From: Octopus vulgaris
Taxonomy: Eukaryota
DNA: 64,000 nt
Assembly: GCA_951406725.2 (NCBI GenBank)
Contig: OX597834.1
Span: forward strand, 8,990,001 to 9,054,000
Direction: 5' to 3'
The notes below the pieces were generated by a model. It did not search any database. It saw only the letters and a program-made list of their open reading frames with translations, and was not told the origin of the DNA. Below are positions 1 to 62,096 of the stretch, piece after piece; the first letter of the stretch is position 1, and each line of letters starts with the position of its first letter. Position numbers and translations under genes: made by a program.

Positions 1-243
1 TTTGTCGAAGTGAAACAATTTGGGATTTTGTGATGTCGATTGTAGTGATTAAGAAGAGAATGAGTATTTTCATAAAGACTTAATAGGTCTCATGTGGTTG
101 GTTTGGGTGGAAGGTTTTTTTTAATTTTCAAATGCGGGACGTACGTACACACGCATGCACGCACATACACCCGCACAAAAAAAGAACAGACACAAATATA
201 GAGAGACAGATGGATTTAAGATTTCACAATCATACTAGCATAT

Positions 244-280
244 AGGCGTAGGAGTGGCTGTGTGGTAAATATATTGCTTA
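244..280 (+). mobile_element. 5' fragment of CORE-type tRNA-derived SINE
   Basis: aggcgtaggagtggctgtgtggtaa matches the 5' end of the full copies at 29010 and 58543; truncated after ttgcttac. Confidence 0.6.
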
Positions 281-1060
281 CTTCCGGTTACCCAGAATGC
301 AATACTACTTGGTCTGGACTGTTTCGGTGACAAGATGTGAGTTTTTTTTTTTTGGCTCCGTGAGTAGAAAAAAGAACAAAAAGAAAAATTGTCAATTATG
401 GCTCGCTATAGCGAGCAAAATAGTGGGTTCTCATCACCTTAACGGTGAATTGAGAATTTCTGCTTAAAAATTCTTTTTGTAAATTCTAGTGCGCGTATGT
501 CGCCAGTAAAAGTACACTTTTTCCGAACTGGAGTACTTCAAGAATAAGCCATTTGGATTACCTCTTTGGAGTATAATACAAAGGATTCCCTGTCTTTGCT
601 ATTTGTGAGGTTTTTCTTTTACTTTTCCCTTCTATTTTTTCTTTCTTTCTAAATTTTGTTTCATTCTTTTCATTACTTTAATTTCAGTTTCCTCCTCTTT
701 TATTTTGTTTTATTTTTATTCGGTTTGTGTTTTTGGCGGACTGTCTTTTGTACTACTTTTGAACTGTTTTTTGACATGACAGAGAAGGAACTTAAAAAGA
801 AAACCTCTGTCTTAGAGTGGGAAATTAACCCGCCTAAACAGTGGTTAAAAGATATGTAGGAGAAGACGGTGGTGCTTAGAACTTATTCTGAACTTCTTAA
901 TTCCACCACCGTCTTCCCAAAACAAGTTATAAAAAATGAACTTAAAGACTATTGTCCTCTTTAAAATATATATCCCGTGGTGTCAAAGTCCATAGTGCGT
1001 AGTACATACGAGGTTAAAAATGAAAAATATTTTCTAAGCAATGTCAGAGTCTCTATTTGC
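281..1060 (+). mobile_element. Possible 5' UTR plus decayed ORF1 start of an L1/Tx1-like LINE
   Basis: Interrupts the SINE head; the frame from 777 reads MTEKELKKK...DM*EKTVVLRTYSELLNSTTVFPKQVIKNEL with in-frame stops; family resemblance by eye only. Confidence 0.25.
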
Positions 1061-1784
1061 TGTCCGGCAATCTTTATTCGGATGTATTTTGCGCGAAAAT
1101 ACCTTAAGCTAAGCCTGAAAGCAATGAAGTTATAAAAGAATCATCTATAACTTGCAATTAGCAAAATTTATTAAACGTTATTACTGTTATTTCTTTATTG
1201 TCTGCAAACAAAATGCACAAAAAGCTACACGTTTGCATTACGTTATATATGCAATAATAATAAAGGACGTTGCCGTATACAGTTTTTGGTACTTGTCAAT
1301 TGTCGTGGTCCCGGTTTTGCACACGCGAATTCGCGCGCGCGCGCGCGCCAGACGTAGGTACTCGATACTCGAGATCCTACGAGGTGACTTGCGCACGCGC
1401 AGTGCAGAATTCGCGCGTGCGCGTTAAACCCCCCCCCTCCTAAAAAAAAAAGGTGTTGGATTTCACTAAAAATATATATGTGTGTGTGTGTATATATAAC
1501 ATTTTCAATTTTACACAAAAAAATTACATAGTCGCTTTCCTCGCGGATTTACAGAGAAATGAATTAATTACTATTTTACAGAATAAAATTAATGAATTAA
1601 TTATATAAATTAAATAATTCTTGAAAATTAATTAATATTAATAATATTTTTTGAACAAAGTAAATAATTTATAAAACTTGGTTAATAACTTTTTTTACAC
1701 AAACGCGAACGTATATAATTTGTGAAACTTTTTTTTTTTTTACAGACGTATATAATTTGGTAAACTTAATGAATTAATTTCTTC

Positions 1785-2208
1785 TCATCATCATCATCGT
1801 TTAACGTCCGTTCTCCATGCCAGCATGGGTTGGACGGTTCGACCGGGGATCTGGGAAGCCAGAAGGCTGCACCAGACTCCAGTCTTATCTGGCAATGTTT
1901 CTACAGCTGGATGCCCTTCCTAACGCCAACCACTCCGAGAGTGTAGTGGGTGCTTTTTACATGCCACCCGCACAGGTGCCAGGCGAGGCTGGCAACGGCC
2001 ACGGTCGGATTGGTGCCAGTCGAGGCGGCTCTGGCATCGGCCACGATTCGGATAGTGCTTTTTACGTACCACCAGTCCAGGGGTCCTGGCATTTGCCGGG
2101 TGCCACACTTGCCCCAACATGTCTTCGCAAGCAAAGGGGGTTGGCATGGGTGCCTGTCGTGGGATGAGGTTCGATATCAACTTCGCTTGCCTCAACAGGT
2201 CTTTGTGT
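1785..2208 (-). mobile_element. RTE-related non-autonomous retroposon, 5'-truncated, in the left arm
   Basis: On the minus strand it ends ...ccaacccatgctggcatggagaacggacgttaaac(gat)n and contains ggttggcgttaggaagggcatccagc; a GC-rich island in an AT-rich arm. Confidence 0.7.
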
Positions 2209-2378
2209 ATAAATGTATAAATTTTTCGCACTAAATTCTTTCCGTAGAATTTATAAAAAAACGCGCAAAATTATTCCGTAGACTTTATCAAATTAAAAAA
2301 CGCAAAATTAATATATTTTTTGAAATTGCAAATTATTTAGAATATAAAACAAATTAAGTTAAATTTTAAAAATAAATG

Positions 2379-2507
2379 TCATATACTTATACTCTGTAAG
2401 GTGCTGTGTTCACACTTCAATTTACTATTTTCTAGAAATGTTGCTTTTCTAATTGAAACAATTTTTCTCAATCTCCATTTAAAAGTCCATAATGCCTCTT
2501 GAGCCAT
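2379..2507 (-). pseudogene. Merlin (IS1595/ISXO2-like) transposase fragment, left-arm copy
   Basis: Mirror image of 2987-3115. Confidence 0.6.
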
Positions 2508-2784
2508 ATCAAAATGAACAACTTTGAATTACGTGGTGGTGGTGGTGTGAGGTTCTAATTTTTTTTTCTGATCTCTCTTTGCCCCCTCTTTATCTCAGTT
2601 GTTCATTCAGCTAATATTTAGAAAAATTTTCGCGCCCAATTTTTGTTGTCGCGGGAAAAGATGAACGATTTAAAATAAATATATCTTAATTGTAGTGTGA
2701 GAAAGTATATATATTCTGATGACAAAATATATTATCTTTCAAAAACATCCCAAATTTATAGACTATATCGTGTAGGTTTAAGAA

Positions 2785-2833
<49 letters not shown>

Positions 2834-2986
2834 TATAGATATATATATACATATATAGTAGAGAATGAAACATCTTTCATCTGTCTCCCCACCACACCTC
2901 CATCTAGGGGGGGCAAAGAGAGATCATAAAAAAAATTAGAACCTCACACCACCACCACCACGTAATTCAAAGTTGTTCATTTTGAT

Positions 2987-3115
2987 ATGGCTCAAGAGGC
3001 ATTATGGACTTTTAAATGGAGATTGAGAAAAATTGTTTCAATTAGAAAAGCAACATTTCTAGAAAATAGTAAATTGAAGTGTGAACACAGCACCTTACAG
3101 AGTATAAGTATATGA
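2987..3115 (+). pseudogene. Merlin (IS1595/ISXO2-like) transposase fragment, right-arm copy
   Basis: 42-aa ORF MAQEALWTFKWRLRKIVSIRKATFLENSKLKCEHSTLQSISI; WR..K.VSIRK.TF.ENSKL resembles the SIR-x-GT-F-FE-x-SKL motif that follows the N-terminal Zn ribbon of Merlin transposases; DDE domain absent. Confidence 0.6.
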
Positions 3116-3285
3116 CATTTATTTTTAAAATTTAACTTAATTTGTTTTATATTCTAAATAATTTGCAATTTCAAAAAATATATTAATTTTGCGTTTTTTA
3201 ATTTGATAAAGTCTACGGAATAATTTTGCGCGTTTTTTTATAAATTCTACGGAAAGAATTTAGTGCGAAAAATTTATACATTTAT

Positions 3286-3709
3286 ACACAAAGACCTGTT
3301 GAGGCAAGCGAAGTTGATATCGAACCTCATCCCACGACAGGCACCCATGCCAACCCCCTTTGCTTGCGAAGACATGTTGGGGCAAGTGTGGCACCCGGCA
3401 AATGCCAGGACCCCTGGACTGGTGGTACGTAAAAAGCACTATCCGAATCGTGGCCGATGCCAGAGCCGCCTCGACTGGCACCAATCCGACCGTGGCCGTT
3501 GCCAGCCTCGCCTGGCACCTGTGCGGGTGGCATGTAAAAAGCACCCACTACACTCTCGGAGTGGTTGGCGTTAGGAAGGGCATCCAGCTGTAGAAACATT
3601 GCCAGATAAGACTGGAGTCTGGTGCAGCCTTCTGGCTTCCCAGATCCCCGGTCGAACCGTCCAACCCATGCTGGCATGGAGAACGGACGTTAAACGATGA
3701 TGATGATGA
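3286..3709 (+). mobile_element. RTE-related retroposon, mirror copy in the right arm
   Basis: Reverse complement of 1785-2208, with a (GAT)n tail. Confidence 0.7.
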
Positions 3710-4517
3710 GAAGAAATTAATTCATTAAGTTTACCAAATTATATACGTCTGTAAAAAAAAAAAAAGTTTCACAAATTATATACGTTCGCGTTTGTGTAAA
3801 AAAAGTTATTAACCAAGTTTTATAAATTATTTACTTTGTTCAAAAAATATTATTAATATTAATTAATTTTCGAGAATTATTTAATTTATATAATTAATTC
3901 ATTAATTTTATTCTGTAAAATAGTAATTAATTCATTTCTCTGTAAATCCGCGAGGAAAGCGACTATGTAATTTTTTTGTGTAAAATTGAAAATGTTATAT
4001 ATACACACACACACATATATATTTTTAGTGAAATCCAACACCTTTTTTTTTAGGAGGGGGGGGGGGTTTAACGCGCACGCGCGAATTCTGCACTGCGCGT
4101 GCGCAAGTCACCTCGTAGGATCTCGAGTATCGAGTACCTACGTCTGGCGCGCGCGCGCGCGCGAATTCGCGTGTGCAAAACCGGGACCACGACAATTGAC
4201 AAGTACCCAGTTTTTCAAAGCAAGGACCTTATATACACCTCCTTGACTCAAGTTAGAGAAGGGGTGCGTATTATACAGAAGGTTTATGTTTTTCAGAGGT
4301 ACAGCCTCCTAAAAATCCCCTGCGTATTATACTCAAGGGTGGACTATACTCGAATATTTACGGAAGTTAGAAATACCTGTCTTTTTATTCTGCAAACACA
4401 CGGATTTTTAAAAACTTAAAGCACAAGATGGACAATATATATTTTGATACACTATTTGCAAAATTCCAAGTGAGGTCGTCGAGGTATCGAATTCATTCAT
4501 TATGAAATGATCACTCA

Positions 4518-4735
4518 AGGCGGCGAGGTGTTAGAATCGTTAGCTCACTGCACGAAATGCTTAGCGGTATTTCGCCCGTCGCTACAGTCCGAGTTCAAAT
4601 CCTGCCGAGGTCGACCTTGCCATTCATCATTTTGGGGTCGATAAATTAAGTAGTTGTGAAATTCTGGTGTCGATGGAATCGATTTAACCCCCACAATAGA
4701 TTTCATGTCTTGTGCCTTGTAGAAAAGGATTATTA
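4518..4735 (+). mobile_element. tRNA-derived SINE with a Meta-domain-like centre (family B)
   Basis: ggcggcgagg..gaatcgttagc A-box, gagttcaaatcc B-box, ggggtcgataaattaagta central block. Confidence 0.75.
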
Positions 4736-4779
4736 AATAACTACTTACTTCACTTGAATCACATCTAACTTGTGCTAAA

Positions 4780-5389
4780 GAATTTCAACAACGGCTGCGG
4801 CCCTAAGTTTTTACAAACTTAGTCTAACATGTAAACCGAATAGGAAATACGTTACTGAGTAGTAAGATGTAGTCAAACAGAATTCTGAGCTTATCATGGA
4901 GTTGATGTTTTATTATAAAGTTTAAAGAATGAGTAAATACTTTTCGCTCAACTGAATAAGAGTAGTAACCAAGATATCATCGAATCACAGACAACCACGT
5001 AACACTTTAATATACTAAATATAGAAGTAAGAATTAACCTAAGTTCATTGATACACATTGCCTGGAACAAAGTGTTGATGGTTATGGCTTAAATGTTTTT
5101 ATCACCGTTTCGCTTAATTTGGCTATTTTTGCTAGATCTTATGTTACATAATTTACAGTAATTCTCTGAAGAAATATCAATATCTCAGTACTTTTGTATT
5201 TCTTATTAGTAAAACGAGATTGCAAGATCTAAGTAGGTACGTTACAACAGACATGCAACACTTTTCATTCGTTAGGAATGATTGTGATTTATTAGAGAAT
5301 ATTGTGTTTCTGAAATGGATTTTTGATTGGTTCCATTTTTGCTTCCAAATAATATCTCTGAAAGACTGAAAGATCAAATTTCTCATCAG

Positions 5390-7740: not shown

Positions 7741-8089
7741 AAAGTTACAGTTGCGGTATCGAGTGACGCTGCGTGTCATATATTCAGGTTCCTTGGCTGT
7801 GTGTGTGTGTTTGTTTGAGAGAGAGAGAGAGAGAAAGAATATCTTAATAAGAATGCAAAAAAAAGACAAAGATTGCTTTGCCACGCTCGAACATTTCAAC
7901 ATATCCTTGTTAATCTATTTACAAATATTTTAACAAGAGGGTAAATTGGATCTGGGAATTTATTTTTCCCGTTAACCATTATAATGGTGTACATTTGTAT
8001 CTTCCTGCCAAATTCAGAAAAAAATTCTTTGGGAAATGGCAAGTCTCTTTAAGGCAAAGAAAACTGAAAAGAATCGACGAATATATATA

Positions 8090-8266
8090 CTCTTTACACT
8101 TTTCAGTCATTTGACTGCGGCCGTGCTGGAGCACCGCCTTTAGTCGAGCACTCGACCCCGGGACTTATTCTTTGTAAGCCCAGTACTTATTCTATCGGTC
8201 TCTTTTGCCGAACCGCTAAGTGACGTGGACATAAACACACCAGCATCGGTTGTCAAGCAATGCTAG

Positions 8267-8305
<39 letters not shown>

Positions 8306-8469
8306 CGACGGGCTTCTTTCAGTTTCTGTCTACCAAATCCACTCACAAGGCTTTGGTCGGCCCGAGGCTATAGTAGAAGACGCTTGCCCAAGGAACCGCG
8401 CAGTGGGACTGGACCCGGAACCATGTGGTTGGTAAGCAAACTACCTACCACACAGCCACTCCTGCGCCT
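8090..8469 (-). mobile_element. CORE-type tRNA SINE with internal (TA)/(TG) tract (family A)
   Basis: Reverse complement of aggcgcaggagtggctgtgtggta...ccttgggcaag...gctccagcacggccgcagtcaaatgactgaaa. Confidence 0.85.
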
Positions 8470-8489
8470 ATATATACCTGGATAATTAT

Positions 8490-9130
8490 CGGTGCCAAAT
8501 GTTAATTCAAGTCCAGTAATTATGGGTTGGAGAGTAAGTTAATTAAGTCGACGTCAGTACTCAACTGGTATTTATTTTACCGAACCGAAATCGATGAAAG
8601 GCAAAGTCGACCAGGGCGGAACTTGAACTCAGAAGATAAAGACTGACAAAATAGTGCTAAGCAGTTTGCCCAGCGTGGTAAAGATTCAGCCAGCTCACCA
8701 ACTTGTATAATGAGATAATTATTGACTACAGATTTGATCACACGGCCAATCAATTTCGGTGAAGTGGGTAAGTTGACAACATCGACCCCAGTGCTCTACC
8801 GGTGTTTATTTAATCGCCTCCTATAGGGTAAAAGATAATGTTGACCTCGGCGGAATTTGAACTCAAAATGTAAAAACGGACAAACGATCCTGCCATCTCG
8901 ACGCATTATAGTGATTTAAAATGTTGGCACAAAGCCAGCAATTTCGGGTGAAGGGTTGAAGTCGATCACATCAATTCCATTGTTCAACAGGTACTTATTT
9001 TATTAAACCCCTACCTAGCATGAAGGGTATAGTGGACTTCGGTGGAATTTTAAAATCGGAATGTAAAGACAGACGAAATGAGGTTAGTCATTCTGCCCGT
9101 CGCGGTAACGATTCTCCTAACTCGCCGCTT
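8490..9130 (-). mobile_element. Three head-to-tail degenerate family-B SINE copies
   Basis: (g/t)cggcggaa(c/t)ttgaactca-like blocks recur at ~8615, ~8848 and ~9040, spaced ~200-230 bp. Confidence 0.65.
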
Positions 9131-9169
9131 TATATAAGATTATCATCAAAAATCAAATATTAATCTCAC

Positions 9170-9391
9170 TCTTTTACACTTTTACTTGTTTCAGTCATAT
9201 GACTGCGGCTATGCTGGAGCACCACCTTTGGTCCAGCAAGGCGACCCTGTGACTTATTCTTCGTAAGCCTGGTACTTCTGTTATCGGTCTCTTTTTCCAA
9301 ACCGATGCTAGTGTTTTTACGGGGGCGTAAACACACCAGCATCGGCTGTCAAGAGATGTTGGGGGAAAAACACAGTCACACAAACACACAA

Positions 9392-9468
<77 letters not shown>

Positions 9469-9636
9469 TACATGCATATATAGGGCGGATTTCTTTCAGT
9501 TTCCATCTACCAAATCCACTCACAAGGCTTTGGTTGGCCCGAGGTTATAGAAGACACTTCTCCAAGGGGCAACGCAGTGGGACTGAATCATGTGGCTTGT
9601 AAGCAAGGAACTTACCACACAGGCATTCCTGCGCCT
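9170..9636 (-). mobile_element. Family-A CORE-type SINE
   Basis: Same structure as 8090-8469; short duplication of the 5' end at 9639-9655. Confidence 0.8.
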
Positions 9637-10074
9637 ATACACAGCCACTCCTGCGATTATGTATATTGTATGAATAAATTTTGAAATTTATTCGTAACAC
9701 TATTTACAACATTACATAAATTCCATGCCCAAAGATAGAGATTATTATAATATTTATTAAATTAAAAACGAACGTTTAAAGTATCGTAGAAGATATACCA
9801 GCCAATTTTTAAAAACTTTATCAGTAAAATTTGAATTAGTTTGCGATTAGTAGTTAAAGCTGCTAACTGATTATTTTATCTATTTTTATACAGATTGGTA
9901 TATATATATATATATATATATACAGAGAGAGAGAGAGATTAATCTCTTATTTAGAAATAATGCGTTTAGTTTACTGTGATCTATAATGAGATGAGAATCA
10001 ATGTTGATTTTAAATTCAATTAATAATTAATAAACTTCAGATATTTCTTGGTCTATATAATTTGTATATTACTT

Positions 10075-16519: not shown

Positions 16520-19110
16520 GTCATATATATATACGCTTATATATATATATATATATGTATATATATGTATATGTATATATATGTATATGTATGTATATGT
16601 ATATATATGTATATGTATATGTATATATATGTATATGTATATGTATATATATGTATATGTATATATATGTATATGTATGTATATGTATATGTATGTATAT
16701 GTACGTATATGTATATGTATGTAGATGTATGTATATGTATGTATATATGTATGTATATATGTATGTATATATATATATGTATGTATATATATGTGTATAT
16801 GTATGTATATATATATATGTATGTATATATATGTGTATATGTATGTATATATATATATGTATGTATATATATGTGTATATGTATGTATATGTATATGTAT
16901 GTATATGTATATATGTATGTATATATGTATGTATATGTATGTATATGTATGTATGTATATGTATGTATGTATATGTATATATGTATATATGTATATATAT
17001 GTATGTATGTATATATGTATATATATGTATATATATATGTATATATATATGTATATATATATATATGTATGTATGTATGTATGCATATATATATGTATAT
17101 GTATGTATGTATGTATGCATATATATATGTATATGTATGTATGTATGTATGCATATATATATGTATATGTATGTATGTATGTATGCATATATATATGTAT
17201 ATGTATGTATGTATGTATGCATATATATATGTATATGTATGTATGTATGTATGCATATATATATGTATATGTATGTATGTATGTATGCATATATATATGT
17301 ATATGTATGTATGTATGTATGCATATATATATGTATATGTATGTATGTATGTATGCATATATATATGTATATGTATGTATGTATGTATGTATATATATAT
17401 GTATATGTATGTATGTATGTATGCATATATATATGTATATATATGTATGTATGCATATATATATGTATATATATGTATGTATGTATGCATATATATATGT
17501 ATATATATGTATGTATGTATGCATATATATATGTATATATATGTATGTATGTATGCATATATATATGTATATATATGTATGTATGTATGCATATATATAT
17601 GTATATATATGTATGTATGTATGCATATATATATGTATATATATGTATGTATGTATGCATATATATATGTATATATATGTATGTATGTATGCATATATAT
17701 ATGTATATATATGTATGTATGTATGCATATATATATGTATATATATGTATGTATGTATGCATATATATATGTATATATATGTATGTATGTATGCATATAT
17801 ATATGTATATATATGTATGTATGTATGCATATATATATGTATATATATGTATGTATGTATGCATATATATATGTATATATATGTATGTATGTATGCATAT
17901 ATATATGTATATATATGTATGTATGTATGCATATATATATGTATATATATGTATGTATGTATGCATATATATATGTATATATATGTATGTATGTATGCAT
18001 ATATATATGTATATATATGTATGTATGTATGCATATATATATGTATATATATGTATGTATGTATGCATATATATATGTATATATATGTATGTATGTATGC
18101 ATATATATATGTATATATATGTATGTATGTATGCATATATATATGTATATATATGTATGTATGTATGCATATATATATGTATATATATGTATGTATGTAT
18201 GCATATATATATGTATATATATGTATGTATGTATGCATATATATATGTATATATATGTATGTATGTATGCATATATATATGTATATATATGTATGTATGT
18301 ATGCATATATATATGTATATATATGTATGTATGTATGCATATATATATGTATATATATGTATGTATGTATGCATATATATATGTATATATATGTATGTAT
18401 GTATGCATATATATATGTATATATATGTATGTATGTATGCATATATATATGTATATATATGTATGTATGTATGCATATATATATGTATATATATGTATGT
18501 ATGTATGCATATATATATGTATATATATGTATGTATGTATGCATATATATATGTATATATATGTATGTATGTATGCATATATATATGTATATATATGTAT
18601 GTATGTATGCATATATATATGTATATATATGTATGTATGTATGCATATATATATGTATATATATGTATGTATGTATGCATATATATATGTATATATATGT
18701 ATGTATGTATGCATATATATATGTATATATATGTATGTATGTATGCATATATATATGTATATATATGTATGTATGTATGCATATATATATGTATATATAT
18801 GTATGTATGTATGCATATATATATGTATATATATGTATGTATGTATGCATATATATATGTATATATATGTATGTATGTATGCATATATATATGTATATAT
18901 ATGTATGTATGTATGCATATATATATGTATATATATGTATGTATGTATGCATATATATATGTATATATATGTATGTATGTATGCATATATATATGTATAT
19001 ATATGTATGTATGTATGCATATATATATGTATATATATGTATGTATGTATGCATATATATATGTATATATATATATATGAATGTATGTATATGTATATAT
19101 ATGTATATAT
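16520..19110. repeat. 2.6-kb TA/TATG tract containing a 34-bp minisatellite (17083-19060)
   Basis: The GC dinucleotide recurs every 34 bp; unit gcatatatatatgtatatatatgtatgtatgtat. Confidence 0.95.
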
Positions 19111-19219: not shown

Positions 19220-22200
19220 CCCTCATCGTCATCGTGTCCATCTTCCTCCTGCATCTCACTTCATCTTCCTCATCATCATCAACAAACGCAACAACAACAT
19301 TTCCAAAGTTATCGACAATAATATCCTCAACGATCAACATCAAAATCATTATCAAACGCACGAATCTTCTCAATAAGGAACCGGTTTCACTATCTTCATC
19401 ATCGCAATCATCGCCACTCTTCGAAACATCACATGATTATTCAATAATCACTGTCAACACAATTACCACTGTCATCATAAATTTTAATATCACTACCACC
19501 ACCATCACCACCACCACCTCCATCCTCCTCATCATCATGATCATAACTACCACTATAACATCCATCAGCATTACCATTATTACCATCGACGTCGTCATCG
19601 TTATCGTCATCAACATCGTCATCATCAACAGCCTCAACACACCAACGTCGTCCTCATCGACATGATCTTCATCATTCCCTTCACCATCATCATAAGACTC
19701 CTCTTCATCATCATCATCATCATCATTATCGTATTCGTATATCATGATCATCATCATCAAAATTCTCATCATCGCCATCATCATCATTTTCTTCTTGCTA
19801 GTATCAGCAATAACAGTAACACCAACATTGTTATCACCATCATCATGATCATCAGCTTCTTCTTCTTCTGCTCCTCCTCCTCCTTCTTCTTCTTCTTCTT
19901 CTTCTTCTTCTTCTTCTTCTTCTTCTTCTTCTTCTTCTTCTGCTTCTGCTTCTTCTTCTCCTCTTCTTCTTCGTCTTCTTCTTTTTCTTCTTCTTCTTCT
20001 TCTTCTTCTTCTTCTTCCGCTTTTTCTTCTGCTTCTTCTTCTGCTTCTGCTTCTTCTTCTCCTCTTCTTCTTCGTCTTCTTCTTTTTCTTCTTCTTCATC
20101 TTCTTCTTCCGCTTCTTCTTCTTCTGTTCTTTTTTTCTTTTTCTTCTTCTTCTTCTTTTTCTTCTTCTTCTTCTTCTTCTTCTTCTTTCTTCTTCTTCTT
20201 CCGCTTTTTCTTCTGCTTCTTCTTCTGCTTCTTCTTCTGCTTCTGCTTCTTCTTCTCCTCTTCTTCTTCGTCTTCTTCCTTTTCTTCTTCTTCATCTTCT
20301 TCTTCTTCCGCTTCTTCTTCTTCTGTTCTCTTTTTCTTTTTCTTCTTCTTCTTCTTCTTTTTCTTCTTCTTCCTCTTCTTTGCTAGTATCAGTAGTAGCA
20401 CTAGCCCTAACATTGCTATCATCATCATCATCATCATCATAATGCAGTATCCTCTATATGGCTGATTATTCTGTTACGAAAAAAACCAAAAAAACCTTAT
20501 CTAATTCTTCCTCACACACCATACTGTTTTTTTTTTTCTTTCGAAAAGACAAAGAAAACAAAACAAACCAAAAACAAACAAACGGCGCTGTGGAAAGTTC
20601 CACATACTCCTTCGATGCGCGGGAAAAATCATCGCCGGAAAGACATTGATCATTGCACTTTTACAATGATGGATGACCTGCAGTTGAACATCAACATCAA
20701 CATCAGCATCAACATCATACTACTAACCATCAGCGTCAAGAATACCATCTTCATTACCAATTATGACCATCGTCGCCAACACCACGTCGGCTCCATAATT
20801 ATTATTAAAACAACCACCATCATCATCATCATCATCACCTATTGCTAATTTACATATCACCGCCATTAACGTAACTTCTGTCATCTTTATCGTTGTCTTC
20901 ATCATCGGAACATCTTCCAACACTTGTTATTTGCCTTATTATCATCATACAATCTCGTCGTCGTTAACAGCTTCTTCACGAGAATAATTGTCCTCGTTAT
21001 AATCTCCAAAAGTCGACTGCGTCACCATCGTAGCGATCCTTAAAGACACTGCCGCCACCTTCTCCTCCATCATCAACATTATCATCATCATCAACATAAT
21101 CATCATGGTTGTCGTCCTTATCATCATCATCATCGTCGTCGTCATCGTCATCATCATCATCATCACCACCACCATCACCAACACCACCATCAACACCATC
21201 ATCGTCATCATCGTCGTCATCATCATAAACATCATCATCATCATTGTCATCATCATCATTGTCATCATCATCATTGTCATCATCGTCATCATCATCGTCA
21301 TCATCGTCATCGTAGTCATCATCATCATAAACATCGTCATCGTCATCATCACCATCATCATTATCGTCGTCATCATCATCACCATCATCATCATAAACAT
21401 CATCATCATCATCATAAACATCACCATCATCATCGTCGTCATCATCATCATAAACATCATCATCATCGTCATCATCGTCATCATCATCACCATCATCATC
21501 ATTATCGTCGTCATCATCATCATCATAAACATCATCATTGTCGTCATCATCATCATAAACATAATCATCATCTTCATCATTATCGTCAACACCATCACAT
21601 CATTATTATCGTTATCATCATTATTGTAATTTTCGTCATCGTCGTCACCCGAATAATCGTCATCACCATCCATATCACCACGACCACCACAACCAACTAC
21701 TACTGCTGCTGCTGCTGCTGCTGCTACTATTGCAGCTGCTGCCACCACTACTACTACCACCGTTAATATCACCATCACCATCACCATCAACATCATCCTT
21801 ATCAAAACCACCACTTCCATAACCACCACCATCACCACCACCAACTTCGCCGCCGCGCTCAACATCATCATCATCATAATCATCATCATCATCGTCATTT
21901 CCACCACCAACAACGCCACCACCAGACCACCACCACCACCACCAAATATACTTAGTGGCATTGATTTATATTTTCTGGGTTATGATTTTCTTTTTATTTT
22001 GTCTTATTATTGCTTATGTTTTTTTTTTTGTTTTTTTGCATTTTCTTTTTTCTTTTACTTTTCCTTTCTGTGTATTTGTGTTAATTGAAATCAACTCCAT
22101 TGAAATGGAGATCAATAATTCAACAACCGTCACCGACTCAACCCCTCCTGACACCTACACCACCACTACCACCATAACGACCACTACCACCACCACCACC

Positions 22201-22420
22201 ACCACCACTACCACCACCACTACCACCACCAACTACAACACCACCAACACTACCACCACCACACTTAGCTTCCCAACTGCAGCTGCCGCCATCATGTCCG
22301 TTCCTACAACTACTACCACCACCAACAACATCGCAACCACTACTGCTAACACTTCTACCACAACTCCTACTGTCACCACTACCACTAACAATGGTATAAC
22401 TGCTGCTGCTGCTAACGTAT
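19220..22420. repeat. Compound trinucleotide region (ATC)n/(TTC)n/(ACC)n/(GCT)n
   Basis: Direct inspection; source of the poly-amino-acid ORFs in the track. Confidence 0.9.
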
Positions 22421-28585: not shown

Positions 28586-29009
28586 CATTATTGGTTTCTA
28601 TTTTAAGCTTTCTTGACGACAGAGAAAGAGTCGGTATCCAACCGAGATCTATGGCTACTTCATAGGGATTTCAACAACATCGACTGGGTATATTTCCATG
28701 TATGTGTGCGTACACGTGCCATATTCGGAGTTAGTGCTTGTGCAGATTTGTAGGTTTTCGTTTTATATGTATTTTCATGCATTTAGTTGCATGTCTACAC
28801 AATGTATTTAAGTATGCATATATACATGTATGCACTTATGTATGAATATATGTATGTGCGCATGTACGTTTGTATGTATGTATGTTCGTATGTATGTATG
28901 TATGAATGTATGCGTGCATGAACACAGACTCGTCTCTTTGTTGTTAGCCTGATTCCAATTGTGTTTCTGATTCCTGACTGAAAATATTTCAATTCTTCTC
29001 AGCAACAGT

Positions 29010-29404
29010 AGGTGCAGGAGTGGCTGTGTGGTAAGTAGCTTGTTTACCAACCACATGGTTCCGGGTTCAGTCCCACTGCGTGTCACCTTGGGCAAGTGTC
29101 TTCTGCTATAAGCTCGGGAAGACCAAACCCTGTGAGTGGATTTCGTAGAAGGAAATTGAAAGAAGCCCGTCGTATATATGTATGTACATGTGTGTATATG
29201 TTTTTGCGTCTGTGTTTGTCCCTCCCCCCCACATCGCTTGACAACCGATGCTGGTGTTTACATCCTCGTAACTTAGCTGTTCGGCAAAAGAGACTGATAG
29301 AATAAGCACTTGGCTTACAAAGATTAAGTCCTGGGATCGATTTGCTTGACTAAAGGCGGTGCTTCAGCATGGCTACAGTCAAATGACAGAAGCATGTAAA
29401 AGAG
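29010..29404 (+). mobile_element. Family-A CORE-type SINE, full length
   Basis: tRNA-like A box (tggctgtgtggta) and B box (ggttcagtccc), CORE-like ccttgggcaagt, shared 3' tail. Confidence 0.85.
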
Positions 29405-29727
29405 AAAAAATTGATAAAAAATACATGACTCTGCATTGATTGAGTCAGAAATATAGGTAGTCAGTCAAGCAAAACATTGAAAAGAAATACTGCTTTTTTA
29501 TTAGAATTCGTCTAATGAGATTTTCCAAGACTGTGTATTTGGATGCCCCAAATTGAATCTACCATTTGGATGTAATTCACCTTCTCCAGTGTCTCCTTCC
29601 GTTCCTTTTTTTTTGTTTTGTTTTTTTAAAATTTACCTTGTGGAAATTTGTCTGCATGCCCTTCATTTTAATCTCTCTTCTCAAACACTTTAATTGATTG
29701 TGTATGTAATGTCAATATTTATGAATA

Positions 29728-40950: not shown

Positions 40951-40996
40951 ACCCGAACAACCATGTAATGTTTAAAAGAAAAAAATGTATGTTTTA

Positions 40997-41368
40997 TCTT
41001 TTACTTGTTTCAGTCATGCTGGGACACAGCCATGAAAACATTTTAGTCGAATGTATCGACCCAAGTATTTATTTATAATGAACCTGGTACTTATTCTATC
41101 CGTCTTCTTTGCCGACCCCGATAAGTTGCAGGGACGTTAACAAACCACCACCGATCGTCAAGCACTGTTGGGGACAAACACACACAAACACATAGGCATG
41201 TATACACATATACGACGATCTTCTTTCACTTCCCGTCCTCCAAATCCATTCACAAGGATTTGGTCGGCCCGAGGCTATATTAGAAGCCAGTTGCCCAAGG
41301 TGCAACGCAGTGGGACTAAACACGGAAACATCGGTTTGGGAAGTAAGCTTCTTACCACACGATGAAGC
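40997..41368 (-). mobile_element. Family-A SINE, degenerate
   Basis: ttgcccaaggtgcaacgcagtgggact; tacttgtttcagtcat tail. Confidence 0.75.
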
Positions 41369-46811: not shown

Positions 46812-47020
46812 TTGGCGGTGAGCTGGGACAATCTTTAGCTCAAAATGTTTAGTGGCATTTCGTCAGTTTTTTCATTTTGAGCTGAAATTTTCACCGAGGT
46901 GAGCTGTGCTTTTCATCCTTTCGGGGTCGATCGATCAAATAATTACCTGTTGGGCACTGGGATCGATGAAATCAATTTAGTCACTCACCCAAAATTGCTG
47001 GCATTTTGCCAAAATTTGAC
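46812..47020 (+). mobile_element. Family-B SINE
   Basis: ggcggtgagctgg...ttttcatcctttcggggtcgat. Confidence 0.7.
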
Positions 47021-48163
47021 ATCACTATAGTAGGACGTATTCGTTTGAATTTACTCTCTTTCCAACATGTGATCTTGTATCAATGCTTAAATGGTAATAT
47101 AATTTACATTCTTTCTGCCCTTAAAACGTTACTATCACAACAAAGTTGTGAGATTTTCTACTTATCATTAAATTTTACATGTAAAGCTATTTACTGACAT
47201 AGTCATCACAAAATGGGAACGTTTAGGCAATACTTTAAAATTTCCTTCAAAGACCTGGAAAAGATTTATTACTGTTATATCCTGATTAACATAAAACGCC
47301 GTCTCAATGTTCTCGCTTGCATACATACATTTTATAAAATTTGATAGAATGCTGTTTGAATCAAAAAATGCTTGAAACGTAGCTGGTAAGATTTAAACAG
47401 TTTCTAAAGTTATAAATTCAGAGAACAAGAATACAAAAATTTCAAAACTTTGAAGAAGAAAAATAAATCGCACGTATAGACATCGATTCGTGATTCGATC
47501 CTCAGCATGTCCATGGAGGCATATTTTAAGTTTCAATACTTATGTTACGATAGACGCGAATCATCATCCATGCATGCATCGACTTTTGCGTTAAAGAAAA
47601 ATTGTCCTTACTTCAATATTGTCCATCCATAACACATTTCAGTTAAACTTAAAATAACAGCTACATCTTTAAATTTACTGTTTTGGTGTTGTTTTGTTTA
47701 GGGCCATTTTGAATACATTATTGAGAAAGAAACCATTCTAGAACAAAAAGTATGGTGTAACATTCTGACATTTGGCCACATATGACCGAAAGTTCATGAC
47801 AGCCGAATTTGGCAAAGTAACTTTACTGTTTTTCATTTTCTTTCGACAAAAACTCCGATTTGTTTGTACAAGAAAAACTGCATCAAAATAAAACGGATTA
47901 ATGCATTACACGTTCATGACTTAAGCCACACGCCATTTCTTCTTTATGTAACACACCCACCACTCTCTCAACCTTTTGATACATACATGTACACATATGT
48001 ATATGCATATAAATATATTGATAAACACACAACTACAAATATATATATATATATGTTGATAAACACACAACTACAAATATATATATATTTATATATAAAT
48101 AAACACACAACTACAAATATATATTTATATATATATATATATTGACAAACACACAACTACAAA

Positions 48164-51630: not shown

Positions 51631-51660
51631 CCACGCTTATCGTTATATTTCATTATTATA

Positions 51661-51865
51661 GAAGGCGGTTAGCTGACAGATCTGATAGCACACCGGGCAA
51701 AAATGCTTAGCAGTATTTTCGCCTGTCGCAACGTTCTGAGTTCAAACTCCGCCAAGGAGTTTCGATTTCATAAACTAAGTATCAGTGAAACACTGGGGTT
51801 CATATAATCGATTAGTCCCCTCTCCCACTTCTGAGACATTGTGCCTCCAGTAGAAAAGGTTATAT
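51661..51865 (+). mobile_element. Family-B SINE
   Basis: gaaggcggttagctgacaga...ctgagttcaaactccgcc. Confidence 0.7.
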
Positions 51866-52865
51866 TAGATTGTTATTATTAATATTATTATTATTATTAC
51901 TATTGTTATTGATATTATTATTTATATAGTTCTTGTTTTGGTACCAGTAATATATCCATTTCAATCGCATCCAACCTTCGATTGGTTTTAAAATCTGTTA
52001 ACTTGCAAATTTTCTCCTATTTTCTGCCTTGCTGCTAAAGTTACCAGTGCTGTTAGACACTGGATTTGTTAGCTATGCTTTAGTACTTTTGCCGTCTAAA
52101 TTGTTAGATTATCTTGAATTTAACAACCACCAACACCACCACCACCGCCTCCATAGCTACCATATCCATTGCAGTAATGAGGCCCATTACGGCTGAATAC
52201 AATAACAGGTACCACAGTACAGGCAGTAAAATGTATCGCCGGGTAATTTAAAGTAGCATAATTCTAATTGGAACTTAACCTGCCGGGAGAAATAATTTAC
52301 GAAAGAAAATCAATCATGATGAAGTGTAAAAGAAGTAATATTATCCGTAGCCAACTACCCTCATGACCTAAACTTATCAATGCATAGTCACTTAATTTCG
52401 CCTCGGCGTTAATAACCGACAGCTTGTAAGATCTTTGGAGCACGCGTGGAGAGAAAATTATTCGTTATGCAACGAAAGCAATTTGGCACAACTGATGTTA
52501 GAATTGAAACAGAAGGAAGCACTCCACAACTCTAAAAAAAAAAAGAAATTGAGATCGTCCGCATTACATCGTGCATGGACAAACAAATAGTAATGTATGA
52601 GTGGGAAGTTGGCAACTCGAAATATATATATCTGGTGGTTGGCTGCAGAGATTTCCGATGTTGTCCAACATGCAACAATCGCAAGACGTCTAAGCAAAAT
52701 GGCTCGGGTATATAAGTATGGAGCTTTTAAACCAACCGAGCGAGATGTCACTATCTAGAGACAAATCTTACTGCTAAATAAAACTAGTTAAGTATACGAT
52801 AGAATTCAAACTGTTACACTTACCAATACATCAACTAGTATACCGCACCCATACGGATAAATATA

Positions 52866-55802: not shown

Positions 55803-56039
55803 TTTTATCTGTTTCACTCATATGAATGCAACCATGCTGGAGCACTGCTTTGGAGCGTTTCAGTCGAACAGATCAAGCCCCTGAACTTATTTCCTAAGGT
55901 AGCACTTATTCTATCTGTTCTCTTTCGCCGAACGACTACGTTACAGTTATACAAACACACCGACACCGGTTGTCAGGCGGTTATTGTAAGACATCCACAT
56001 ACACAGACACATAATCATATATATATTTATATACATACA

Positions 56040-56099
<60 letters not shown>

Positions 56100-56268
56100 T
56101 GTATACACGCACTCGAATGGTTTCTTTCAGTTTCCGTCTACGAAATCCACTCGCAAGATTTTGGTCGGCCAGAAGCTATAGTAGAAGACAACTCTAAGGT
56201 ACCACGTTGTGGGACTGAACCTGGAACCATGTTGTTGAGAAGCAACTTCTTGCCACTCAGCCACGCCT
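55803..56268 (-). mobile_element. Family-A SINE
   Basis: gggactgaacctggaaccatg; tttcagtttccgtctac; internal (TA)n. Confidence 0.75.
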
Positions 56269-56277
56269 ACACCAATG

Positions 56278-56315
<38 letters not shown>

Positions 56316-58542
56316 TATAAGTATTTATGTAGTGAAGATAACTATTGAATTTGTGAAAAACAAAAAGAACAATTTAAGGCGTATATATATAATAATGAAC
56401 ATATATTACATCAGTGTGGAATATGTTATTTGCTTTAAACCTATTTTATGGCGCACTCTAGTGGTTTGCAGCTTTCCAATACAATCTATGTATTTTGATA
56501 GCCATATACTTATACATACACGCATACATACATATATGCATGAGTACATACATACGTCTTTACATAACTAACTACCTACATACATACATACATACATATA
56601 TATATACGTGTGTATTCGTACGTGTGTGTCTGCGTGTGTTTGTCTGTTTGTGTGCATAACCATTAGATACATAAACAGCAATTTTTCTGTTGAAGAAGAA
56701 AACATTTTCGACCTTGAGTTGACAACCGATATTTACAGTGGTTAAGGACGACTGAGGTTGGGGCGATGCTGCCAAACTCCCAACAACCATAAAAACTTAC
56801 AAATGGTGGTCCATTTCAAAGAGTGAGAATCGATAAAAGGTGTTTGTTATTCATTGAAGTAGAGTGTGTTATAGTGAACTGGTAATAAATGGAGCGGTAT
56901 TATTGGTTGGTATGGTGTTTTCATGTTATGATAGATTTAATGGCGGCGGCGGTGGTGATGTTGATGTTTGAGTCGGAAGTATCTGTATGTAAACTCTGTG
57001 TGTATGTTTGTGTGTGTGTGTTTTCCTGACTTGTTTCCATTGTACGGTTCTGTAAAGGACGATTTCTTAGTGAGGTGTAATATTCCAGAATAGAGATAGT
57101 GATACTGGTTGTAACGATTTATGGCGGTGCTTCTAATGGAGTTTGTGACTGTAATGTTGATGTTTATATATACGTATATAGATATGTGTGCGTGTGTGTA
57201 TGTTTTAAGTATGTATTTATATATGTTTACCTCAAGATATATATATATAGAGAGAGAGAGGAGAGAGAGATAAATAGATAGATATGCATATACATACACA
57301 CACGTATATATATATATATATATATATACACACAGATACATACATACATATATATAGAGAGATAGCTAGCTAGATAGATAGATATGCATATACATGCACA
57401 CGAATAAATATATATGTATATATATATATATAAGAGAGAGAGAGATAGAGATAGTGAGAGCAGATAGGACAGTGCATGAAAGATCCATATATACGTAAGG
57501 TAAATTTTATATACGAATGTGAAGGGGTACTCTAGTGTATGCAAATGCCTATTTTTATGTGCCGAGTGATGTAGTTCCTTTTTTTTTCTAGATGCTAATT
57601 AGATTCAAGTGCTGGACTGGCAATCCTGTTATCACCCTTTGCTGCGTCAAAAAGTTTAAGTGGATTCTGGAGGACCATTATTTAGTGTGTTGGAGTGTTT
57701 GCGTGCACAATGTTCTGTTAATGTGAATTACCATATAATATGAATACAGGTTTAATGTCCTATAAATTTTTACTCCCCTTTTTCATCCTGCTAAAATGTT
57801 ACATTAGCGGGTTTTGGCTTCAATATCGTTGTAGGGAGAGAAAATCAACTGCTGTGTTCCTTTCGCAGGGTATTTGAAACTGGTGGGAAAATAGAGAATT
57901 TTTCTTTAAATGGGATAATTTTTCCTCTGAATTTTTGCAACAACTTAGACTCCACTAATCAGATTAAAAATCGAGTTGAATATTTTAAAACTAAAGGTTA
58001 ATCTAACACTTCCAGTCATCTACATACTTCTTCATTACACAGTATAGTAGCTTATATGTTGTGAATTATTATTTTGCATTCCGTATATACATTGGCAGCT
58101 AAAAGGTTATCATTTTATGAAATATATTGATCTACATTATGCTAAGTACTGCTCAGACTGTCCATGATTATTGACAACGATCACTGCTATAATAATATAT
58201 ACGGAACCAGTAGGCAATTAAAACATCCATCAATGTCTCATAAAGTATATACATCGTTGAAAGGTAATTTTCTGAGACTTGGAAACAAACAGCACAATGT
58301 CTGATGTATACTTCGTTTTCAAAAAATTGTAACGTGATTTAAAGGATATTTCGCTTCGTTTTCAAGGAGGGCTAGCTTAAAATGTCGTTATGGATATTTT
58401 ATGATTGCTCATTAATTACTATTTAAAGAAGTATAAGCGTTATATTTCGTAAATGAATATTTCTGTAACGTTGTACAATTCTGTGAAGTAGTAGCGATGA
58501 GATAAGTTTAAAACTTTAGCAGTTTGGCGCCGGAGTGGCTAT

Positions 58543-58705
58543 AGGCGCAGGAGTGGCTGTGTGGTAAGTAGCTTGCTAACCAGCCACATGGCTCCGGGTT
58601 CAGTCCCACTGCGTGGCATCTTGGGCAAGTCTCTTCTGCTATAGCCCCGGCCCGACCAAACCTTCTGAGTGGATTTGGTAGACGGAAACTGAAAGAAGCA
58701 TGTCG

Positions 58706-58756
<51 letters not shown>

Positions 58757-58923
58757 CTGTGTCTGTGTTTGTTCCCCTAGCATTGCTTGACAACCGATGC
58801 TGCTGTGTTTAAGTTCCCGTCACCTAGCGGTTCGGCAAAAGAATAAGTCCCAGGGTCGATTTGCTCGACTAAAGGTGATGCTCCAGCATGGCCGCAGTGA
58901 AATGACTGAAACAAGTAAAAGAG
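58543..58923 (+). mobile_element. Family-A SINE
   Basis: aggcgcaggagtggctgtgtggtaagtagc...gactgaaacaagtaaaag; 15-bp copy of its 5' end just upstream (58526-58540). Confidence 0.85.
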
Positions 58924-60383
58924 TTATAAATTGAGCAACTCATTTTCAATGCAATTATCGTCTGACTATTGCTGCTGTTATTTACTCTTCAATTGGTAAG
59001 TATTGAACAGATATAGACTTAAGACATCCCAGACGTGGCCTTCCGTTTTACTTTATAAATAATCGTAGGTATTATATATGCCCCTCCCTAATTCTTATGA
59101 CGGCGGAGATATTTGTCTATCATTTATCATCTTAGGAAGTATCGTTAGCGATTATATGTAACGTGTGGTTTTCCCTCAGCTTGGTCCTATACAGTCAGAC
59201 CACTGATTTAAACCATTCCAGCAATGTCCGTCACTTGTTTTGGGTTTTGCTTTTTCCTGTGTATAGGGAACAAGGGACCTTATAACACAAAAGAAAATAA
59301 AGAAATTAGTAGTGCTTCATTTTCTGTAGATTTGGTTGTTATTTGTAGTTCCTCATCGACTTTTCTCAATCATAGCATTGAGCTGCCATCACTATCAAAA
59401 TTTTAACGATGTAAGATTAGTCTGTAAGATTGAATGCGAGGTAGCTCTTTGCGAGAAAACCGAATTCAAAAAACTTAAACTTGATGTACTAAAATCTTCA
59501 AAATACGAATAAATTCACCCCAAAATTTGAAATATTTTACAGGAAATATGAAAACCAACTCCAAGAATCCAGCAATTACTAGAAGTTTTCAATAGAATTT
59601 TATTTTAGAAACATACTGTAACATATTTACATACTTTTATTATCGTATGTCACAATAACTGGTTTAATATAAAAAATTGGTCTTAAAAATATTTACATTT
59701 TAAAAATGGGATTTATTTGAGAAATATAATGCAATAAATCTTTTGATTACGCGACGTCAGAATAACTATTTTCGGGGGAAATGATAAAAGAAAAACTTAA
59801 GAAGTATTTATTTTCAGTTTTCAACGGAGTTTATTTTAGATATATATAACATTAATTTTAATTTATTATACTACATTAAGATGACAAAGGATGCTGGGTG
59901 TAAAGAACATTTTGCATACTACATATGGAAATAAAAAATAACACTGAAAATGTGTTGTAGGTATAAAATCTCGAAGACTAAACGTGATCATAAATAGTTT
60001 ATATATCGAATACGTTTGTTCATTAAATGTTTTCGTTATTGAATATATTCCTTGTAACTCCTTCATTTTCTGTTTATACAAATGCAAAAATATCGAACAC
60101 AGGCTCGACCACTTGCTTATCTTTGAATTTGCTTTTAGTTTTCTTTTTTTTTTTTGCATTATATCAATATATAAAATGTGGTCATTTAATCGTTTGGTTT
60201 GTTTCCGTTTCAAATGAATGAATGAAAGAAAGAAGGAGTTAATCTATTCATGACAGAATTTGAATAATGAATTATTCAGTAAATGAACTATTTAAGCCTT
60301 CGATTATGCGTTTGATACTGTCTAAATGCAAGACGCTCTCTACTGCTGCTGCTGCTGCAACCACCACCACCACCACCACCACC

Positions 60384-60766: not shown

Positions 60767-62096
60767 CCACAAGGGGCTAAACACAGAGGGGACAAACAAG
60801 GACAGACAAACGGATTAAGACGATTACATCTACCCCAGTGCGTAACTGGTACTTAATTTATCGACCCCCCGAAAGGATGAAAGGCAAGTCGACGTCGGCG
60901 GAATTTGAACTCAGAACGTAGCGGCAGGCAAAATTCCTATTTATTTACTACCCACAAGGGGCTAAACACAGAGGGGACAAACAAGGACAGACAAACGGAT
61001 TAAGACGATTACATCTACCCCAGTGCGTAACTGGTACTTAATTTATCGACCCCCCGAAAGGATGAAAGGCAAAGTCGACGGCGGCGGAATTTGAACTCAG
61101 AACGTAGCGGCAGGCAAAATTCCTATTTATTTACTACCCACAAGGGGCTAAACACGGAGAGGAAAACACGGACAGACAAACGGATTAAGTCGATTACATC
61201 GACCCCAGTGCGTAACTGGTACTTAATTTATCGACCCCCGAAAGGATGAAAGGCAAAGTCGTCGGCGGAATTTGAACTCAGAACGTAGCGGCAGGCAAAA
61301 TTCCTATTTATTTACTACCCACAAGGGGCTAAACACGGAGAGGACAAACACGGACAGACAAACGGATTAAGTCGATTACATCGACCCCAGTGCGTAACTG
61401 GTACTTAATTTATCGACCCCCCGAAAGGATGAAAGGCAAAGTCGACGTCGGCGGAATTTGAACTCAGAACGTAGCGGCAGGCAAAATTCCTATTTATTTA
61501 CTACCCACAAGGGGCTAAACACGGAGAGGACAAACACGGAGAGACAAACGGATTAAGACGATTACATCGACCCCAGTGCGTAACTGGTACTTAATTTATC
61601 GACCCCCGAAAGGATGAAAGGCAAAGTCGACGTCGGCGGAATTTGAACTCAGAACGTAGCGGCAGGCAATATTCCTATTTATTTACTACCCACAAGGGGC
61701 TAAACACGGAGAGGACAAACACGGACAGACAAACGGATTAAGACGATTACATCGACTACAGTGCGTAACTGGTACTTAATTGAATCGACCCCCGAAAGGA
61801 TGAAAGGCAAAGTCGACGTCGGCGGAATTTGTACTCAGAACGTAGCGGCAGGCAAAATTCCTATTTATTTACTACCCACAAGGGGCTAAACACGGAGAGG
61901 ACAAACACGGACAGACAAACGACGGATTAAGTCGATTACATCGACTACAGTGCGTAACTGGTACTTATTGAATCGACCCTGAAAGGATGAAAGGCAAAGT
62001 CGACCTCGGCGGAATTTGTACTCAGAACGTAACGACAGACGAAATACGGCTATGTATTTCGCCCGGTGTGCGAAGGTTTCTGCCAGCTCACCACCA
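60767..62096 (-). repeat. Tandem array of 7 SINE-derived units (181-186 bp), ending in one complete family-B SINE
   Basis: ccacaagggg at 60767, 60952, 61138, 61319, 61505, 61690 and 61876; only the last unit has the A-box head (to 62096). Confidence 0.95.

Follow-up and report, generated by a model that had tools for sequence, protein, structure and literature searches.

The window, that is, the whole 64-kb stretch of Octopus vulgaris DNA analyzed here, contains a foldback element in which two inverted 1.3-kb arms carry the same fragment of a Merlin transposase and the same GC-rich insert. We propose, with a probability of about 0.6, that a Merlin transposon first underwent internal deletion, then gained the insert, and finally had its upstream end replaced through a templated repair event that started from pairing of the terminal repeats.

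The element, its termini and its arms

Self-comparison of the window showed that the full unit extends from 1288 to 4207 (2920 bp); an earlier note on this DNA had covered only its middle. The overall structure is as follows.

1280..1287 (+): left copy of the 8-bp target duplication (TSD), CAGTTTTT; 8/8 match to 4208-4215
1288..4207 (.): whole element, a putative foldback non-autonomous Merlin derivative with GG...CC termini
1288..1444 (+): GC-rich block at the left terminus, containing short palindromes; mirror of 4051-4207, 62% GC
1288..2589 (-): left arm, the right arm in reverse complement; 99.46% identity over 1304 columns
1658..1767 (+): 22-nt repeat in three imperfect copies, within the AT-rich subterminal stretch of the left arm; mirror at 3727-3836
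2240..2310 (+): two copies of a 34-bp unit in tandem; mirror at 3184-3254
2590..2905 (.): unique, AT-rich spacer with an (AT)n tract; 316 bp, 25% GC
2906..4207 (+): right arm; 99.46% identity over 1304 columns
4051..4207 (-): right terminal GC-rich block; 157 nt, 62% GC
4208..4215 (+): right copy of the 8-bp TSD; 8/8 match to 1280-1287

Among the direct-repeat lengths tested at the borders of the element (4 to 13), a full match was found at 8 alone. The chance of such an 8-bp repeat was 4e-5 by base composition, and when 2,000,000 pairs of positions were drawn at random from the window, which is rich in microsatellites, 1480 also gave one. Merlin transposons have TIRs starting with 5'-GG and a TSD of 8 or 9 bp (PMC8101967, quoting Feschotte 2004), and a Merlin-type assignment of the element's ends and TSD is supported by these sequences. 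In the terminal GC-rich blocks, the regions 1319-1420 and 4075-4176 contain a palindromic 12-mer (at 1324 in the left block) and a (GC)n run; about 80 nt further inward, a second sequence nearly repeats the palindrome. These features are candidate transposase-binding sites, and the ancestral TIR, together with the predicted transposase-binding region, is likely to lie inside the terminal GC-rich block.

The two arms differed by three substitutions (1622, 2568 and 2587) and four gap columns, with all gaps in homopolymer runs. The outer 1280 bp of the arms contained a single substitution, the C/T change at a CG site at 1622. Near-perfect inverted duplications are known to arise as a long-read artefact, and the arms could in principle represent a read-through foldback chimera or a collapsed repeat. 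However, the duplication ends exactly at the GG...CC termini and is bounded by the direct 8-bp repeat, the flanks are unique and differ from each other, the spacer is unique, and the arms show seven differences. We consider an assembly artefact extremely improbable.

From the centre outward, each arm consists of 82 nt, a 98-nt transposase remnant, 200 nt at 21% GC, 424 nt at 57% GC, 341 nt at 20% GC, and 157 nt at 62% GC. The spacer showed no similarity to the arms except for the microsatellite. Dust-filtered blastn found no second inverted repeat of at least 60 bp and at least 90% identity in the window.

The sequences on both sides of the element (282-1279 and 4216-4370) may represent an older DNA transposon that was interrupted by the Merlin element. 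A 12-nt flank motif occurs twice, at about 4266 and 4321, and has a partial reverse complement near 570. The inverted alignment of one flank to the other was not above shuffles (a score of 25 vs a shuffle mean of 27), and the Pfam search of the two flanks found nothing. An imperfect local hairpin with stems of 14 to 18 bp, which gave a sub-threshold Rfam match, lies at 855-922. When 44 frames (from the flanks and the non-repetitive long frames) were searched for a host gene, only 1 weak, irrelevant Pfam match was obtained.

Further from the element, the window contains several other repeats. A dispersed SINE-like family is found at 4517-4740, 8532-8711, 46814-47029 and 51655-51870, and part of it is resembled by the 186-bp units of a tandem array at 60767-62045 (about 7 units, 96% matches); judged from this resemblance, the array would be a SINE fragment amplified into a small satellite. 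A second dispersed family of about 400 bp, which has an internal microsatellite and copies 69-82% identical (8080-8472, 9165-9655, 29009-29414, 40989-41360, 55812-56279 and 58528-58935, with a head fragment at 240-281), is probably a SINE. A 2.6-kb minisatellite occupies 16547-19110 (34-bp unit, about 76 copies, 94% matches), and dense long triplet repeats (CTT, CAT, CAC) with a strong strand skew at 19489-22262 give rise to long low-complexity open frames.

The transposase remnant and the orientation of the arms

The earlier note had reported a 42-aa ORF with a Merlin-like motif pointing outward in each arm. We found that the ATG-to-stop frames at 2987-3115 (+) and 2379-2507 (-) are indeed identical, and the likeness to Merlin was confirmed: 18 of 20 residues match residues 70-89 of XP_029648038.1, a 289-aa protein of Octopus sinensis, while residues 29-37 are found just upstream in another frame. 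As a coding unit, the ORF did not hold up. It is a frameshift hybrid of two reading frames, in which the first 13 codons mostly read piece 1 of the remnant out of frame, the middle is piece 2, and the tail matches nothing.

2409..2506 (-): left copy of the transposase remnant; motifs at 2506-2492, 2488-2477, 2459-2445 and 2441-2424
2988..3017 (+): remnant piece 1, with one codon added to residues 29-37 of XP_029648038.1; frame differs from that of the 42-aa ORF
3026..3085 (+): remnant piece 2, residues 70-89 of XP_029648038.1; 18/20 identical

Between pieces 1 and 2, 8 nt stand in place of residues 38-69, a stretch that has four cysteines. All coding beyond residue 89 is gone, including the DDE domain; the catalytic region starts near residue 150. 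The remnant is drawn from the N-terminal third of the protein, and with the codons for two stretches retained and the catalytic domain lost, the description of an internally deleted Merlin was borne out.

The match was found by an exact-word search of the S1 Appendix of PMC8101967, followed by alignment by eye. The proteins in this appendix had been gathered by blastp, and the presence of the Merlin DDE_Tnp_IS1595 domain had been verified. Taken over the arm and the 1.43-million-character file, the chance expectation for piece 2 was about 3e-10 if each residue is assumed to match with a probability of 0.065. The 10-residue core is present in at least 2 places in the S1 Appendix (2/2 from Octopus), and the 5-residue motif of residues 29-33 in at least 6 places (6/6 from Octopus), both counts being lower bounds owing to line breaks in the file. 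Outside the element, none of the 122,162 codon positions carries this 5-residue motif.

Profile and database searches gave no matches. Pfam returned 0 families for the 49-aa and 42-aa frames and 0 for 6 element frames, NCBIfam matched 0 of 2 peptide frames, and phmmer with the peptide found none among 1.84 billion representative proteins at E up to 0.001. The peptide was also blank in the word-index search of longer and similar-length proteins and in tblastn of plasmids, and the exact protein look-up found 0 of 4 frames. These blank searches are not evidence against homology, because matches as short as 20 residues are close to the shortest that searches of this kind can detect. The element contains no ORF of more than 120 aa. 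A candidate for the final transposase codons, placed directly after piece 2 at a microhomology, was rejected, as its score was reached in 1372 of 5117 windows.

In each arm, the two pieces of the remnant keep their order and point outward. If the remnant and the termini are colinear, the terminus is therefore the downstream end, which the element has twice. On this assumption of colinearity, the two arms are most simply read as the downstream (right) end of one ancestor. A duplicated upstream end is not favoured, because its remnant would point inward. The earlier note had proposed that the 3' half was copied. The orientation agrees with that proposal in so far as both arms appear to be the downstream end, but the remnant itself is N-terminal (residues 29-89) and lies upstream of the catalytic domain. 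The copied part would thus be almost all of the deleted element apart from its upstream end, and beyond the remnant it is orientation alone that would link the downstream sequence to the real 3' end.

Alternatively, the arms could be ancestral long TIRs, with the remnant being filler captured from another Merlin, in which case its orientation would be uninformative. TIRs of 1000 bp are listed in Repbase for Merlin-1_DR and Merlin-N5_DR (PMC8101967 S1 Table), and we found no recognisable transposase coding in the 82 nt upstream and the 200 nt downstream of the remnant. However, any TIR that holds codons of the transposase must by definition have taken in internal sequence, and capture from a second copy would be an extra step. 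We consider this origin of the arms very improbable.

The mirrored insert and the proposed order of events

The insert of about 420 bp described in the earlier note was found in each arm.

1785..2208 (-): left copy of the insert, (GAT)4 tail outward; 100% identical to 3286-3709
3286..3709 (+): insert, right-arm copy with its (GAT)4 tail at 3696-3709; identity to the left copy and a composition step

Each copy is 424 bp long and contains 57% GC, vs 20-21% on both sides, with sharp boundaries. The sharp composition boundaries and the (GAT)4 tail, together with the lack of a Pfam match for the two long frames, fit a retroposon, and a retroposon is the probable identity of the insert. It may resemble a common octopus RTE-related family; the RTE label of the earlier note is a candidate assignment. 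For bipartite non-autonomous RTE retroposons, a 3' microsatellite or poly(A) tail is among the criteria (PMC5786205), and the (GAT)4 tail is such a 3' tail. Of 9 insert motifs looked up word for word in the supplement of PMC5786205, 1 was present, among the passages listed in an unrelated SINE, and a literature search for one insert motif retrieved no paper. The insert had no tRNA match by ARAGORN and no Rfam match, although decayed heads would escape both; the Rfam search over 1-5000 gave four matches, all with E above 1 and none within the insert. The predicted RNA fold of the insert was not stable (z 0.47). A candidate TSD of the insert (8/9 at best) was rejected as chance, since it was equalled by 70 of 200 shuffles. 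No copies of the insert were found outside the element within the 64-kb window.

Since the two copies are identical and lie at the same position in both arms, they derive from a single insertion that was copied along with its surroundings. The identity of the two copies also upholds the earlier view that the last copying of the arms came after the insert.

In the order of events that we favor, a Merlin transposon lost nearly all of its transposase, leaving the codons for residues 29-37 and 70-89. The 424-bp retroposon would then have landed between the remnant and the downstream TIR. In the third step, repair of a break or of an excision gap would have overwritten the upstream end with the 1.3-kb downstream part, copied in inverted orientation; the short terminal repeats would have paired, and synthesis would have run inward using the other end as template. 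The copying post-dates the insert and is recent. The end product encodes nothing and has two identical Merlin ends; cut-and-paste of this element by a transposase from another copy is probably possible.

We estimated that the arms were last identical 0.1-0.3 Myr ago, with an upper bound of 0.9 Myr, using a borrowed rate (JC 0.09 = 25 Myr in PMC13282606, taken as a per-lineage rate). The date marks the last copying, not the insertion of the 424-bp block.

It is also conceivable that the foldback is older than the insert. In that case, the insert would have hit one arm, arm-to-arm gene conversion would have copied it and reset the divergence, and the arms would have been homogenised repeatedly. 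Two of the three substitutions fall in the innermost 22 nt of the arms (P of about 9e-4 if uniform), and such clustering is expected where a recent conversion tract does not reach an older boundary. For Galileo, conversion between long TIRs has been proposed (PMC3573991). However, the mismatch at 2587 has only 2 matching bases beyond it and may not belong to the arm, and the one at 2568 is adjacent to a T run, so that the clustering comes down to one site. An extra event would also be needed, and we consider it unlikely that the foldback came first.

Another route to the same structure would be a dimer, in which two deleted, insert-bearing copies came to lie head to head, the upstream ends were deleted, and the composite transposed as a unit. 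This route was proposed by Filee et al. for Rpmar49 and Rpmar17 (PMC4678618). It yields two downstream ends and a unique spacer, and the shared 8-bp TSD would then prove movement as a unit. On the other hand, it requires two near-identical copies and a deletion ending at the same position in both, whereas a single copying event gives matching ends for free. Related partial copies are absent from the window. We see only a small chance that the element arose from a dimer.

Returning to end replacement by repair, we put the odds that the foldback form has moved at about even. The perfect TSD is no proof of mobility of the foldback, because in-place overwriting from the TIR inward keeps the old TSD. 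The 64-kb window contains only one copy of the element and nothing related beyond its two arms. The terminal and insert patterns were not found in GTDB contigs (searched as host contamination), and no copies of the element were found in phages. A single plasmid match, on the AT tract, was discarded as chance. For O. vulgaris, PMC13282606 reports two Merlin families with recent activity, whose 11 insertions total 28,998 bp (2.6 kb on average). The 2.6-kb mean is compatible in size with the 2.9-kb element, which is a likeness in length and not a link. Element motifs tried in the supplement of PMC13282606 found no sequences.

We also considered a currently mobile octopus Merlin foldback family in which repeated repair of one arm from the other keeps the 1.3-kb arms identical; the existence of such a family seems doubtful. 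If it exists, any passenger, here the retroposon, would be mirrored and then spread two copies per jump, and each insertion would bring a ready-made long hairpin as a potential double-stranded RNA substrate. The octopus lineage is characterized by extensive A-to-I editing. The nested insert would, in such a family, be a built-in clock that orders deletion, insertion, and end replacement across copies.

Comparison with known systems

On the features testable here, the element appears to belong with the non-autonomous Merlin derivatives and with the end-replaced long-TIR elements. As in Merlin derivatives, it has TIRs starting with 5'-GG, an 8-bp TSD, and internal Merlin transposase homology. 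It is not an autonomous Merlin, as it has no DDE_Tnp_IS1595 ORF and the remnant stops about 60 residues before the first catalytic position. Nor is it a MITE by the definition in PMC4161770 (under 1 kb and multi-copy), as it is 2920 bp long. It shares the long inverted arms of the foldback class (FB, Galileo, Tetris), and the repeats within each arm are only the two-copy 34-bp repeat and the three imperfect 22-mers. As in elements of the Rpmar49 type, the same transposase homology is found in both arms and is oriented as the downstream end.

Palindromic Merlin-related elements exist in nematodes, and a literature search for such nematode elements retrieved no paper. A search for an end-duplicated Merlin, or for a retroposon mirrored in both arms, also found none in the literature covered, which was mostly open-access. 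The family may already be catalogued in Repbase, Dfam, or a deposited octopus repeat library.

The closest parallels are Rpmar49 and Rpmar17 of Rhodnius prolixus. In Rpmar49, the 5' part was replaced by 221 bp of the 3' part and 13 independent insertions are described; Rpmar17 underwent the same rearrangement (PMC4678618). Like these elements, the octopus element is non-autonomous and has long TIRs, with a 3' part that would stand in place of the 5' part and transposase homology in the rearranged arm. Unlike it, they belong to Tc1/mariner, and the arms of Rpmar49 are 221 bp, compared with 1.3 kb here. The mobility of Rpmar49 was shown by 13 independent copies, whereas the window has one copy, and the available text of PMC4678618 mentions no nested insert for Rpmar.

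In Drosophila, seven rearranged sublineages of mariner MITEs have the 3' part replaced by the 5' part, and the authors called the origin of the rearrangement elusive (PMC4161770). Dromar7, 11, 28 and 36 resemble the octopus element in that end replacement after internal deletion produced unusually long TIRs; they differ in being short and multi-copy and in that 5' replaces 3', the opposite of the replacement proposed here (PMC4161770).

Galileo 2RT of Drosophila mojavensis is likewise non-autonomous and has TIRs extended by internal sequence, up to 1260 bp, for which repair or conversion between TIRs was proposed (PMC3573991). In contrast to the octopus element, however, Galileo 2RT belongs to the P superfamily, its TIRs were already long ancestrally, and it recruits a non-coding flank (F1 or F2) in copies with no ORF; its arm identity is 95% in the longest copy (PMC3573991).

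Within the Merlin superfamily, the Repbase entries Merlin-N5_DR and Merlin-1_DR share the kilobase-scale TIRs (listed as 1000 bp), and Merlin-N5_DR also has no conserved domain and has mirrored tandem repeats (PMC8101967 S1 Table). These two elements are from zebrafish, and the comparison is one of table entries, not of sequences. The Octopus Merlins XP_029648038.1, KOF84207.1 and XP_029657075.1 and their relatives are the source family of the remnant; compared at the protein level, they keep the DDE region that the element has lost (PMC8101967).

The earlier note had suggested that the proposed route would explain how long-TIR elements arise. The idea is not new, since the origin of long TIRs by this route is already published for mariner (PMC4678618, PMC4161770) and Galileo (PMC3573991). 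A single locus adds an example, not a mechanism. The distinctive points are the Merlin superfamily, the length of the arms, and a mirrored passenger that lets the events be ordered. Across genome copies, arm divergence within elements, set against that between elements, would tell a single round of copying from repeated conversion. With its two internal markers, the coding remnant for direction and the nested insert for order, a Merlin case of this type is well suited to such a test.
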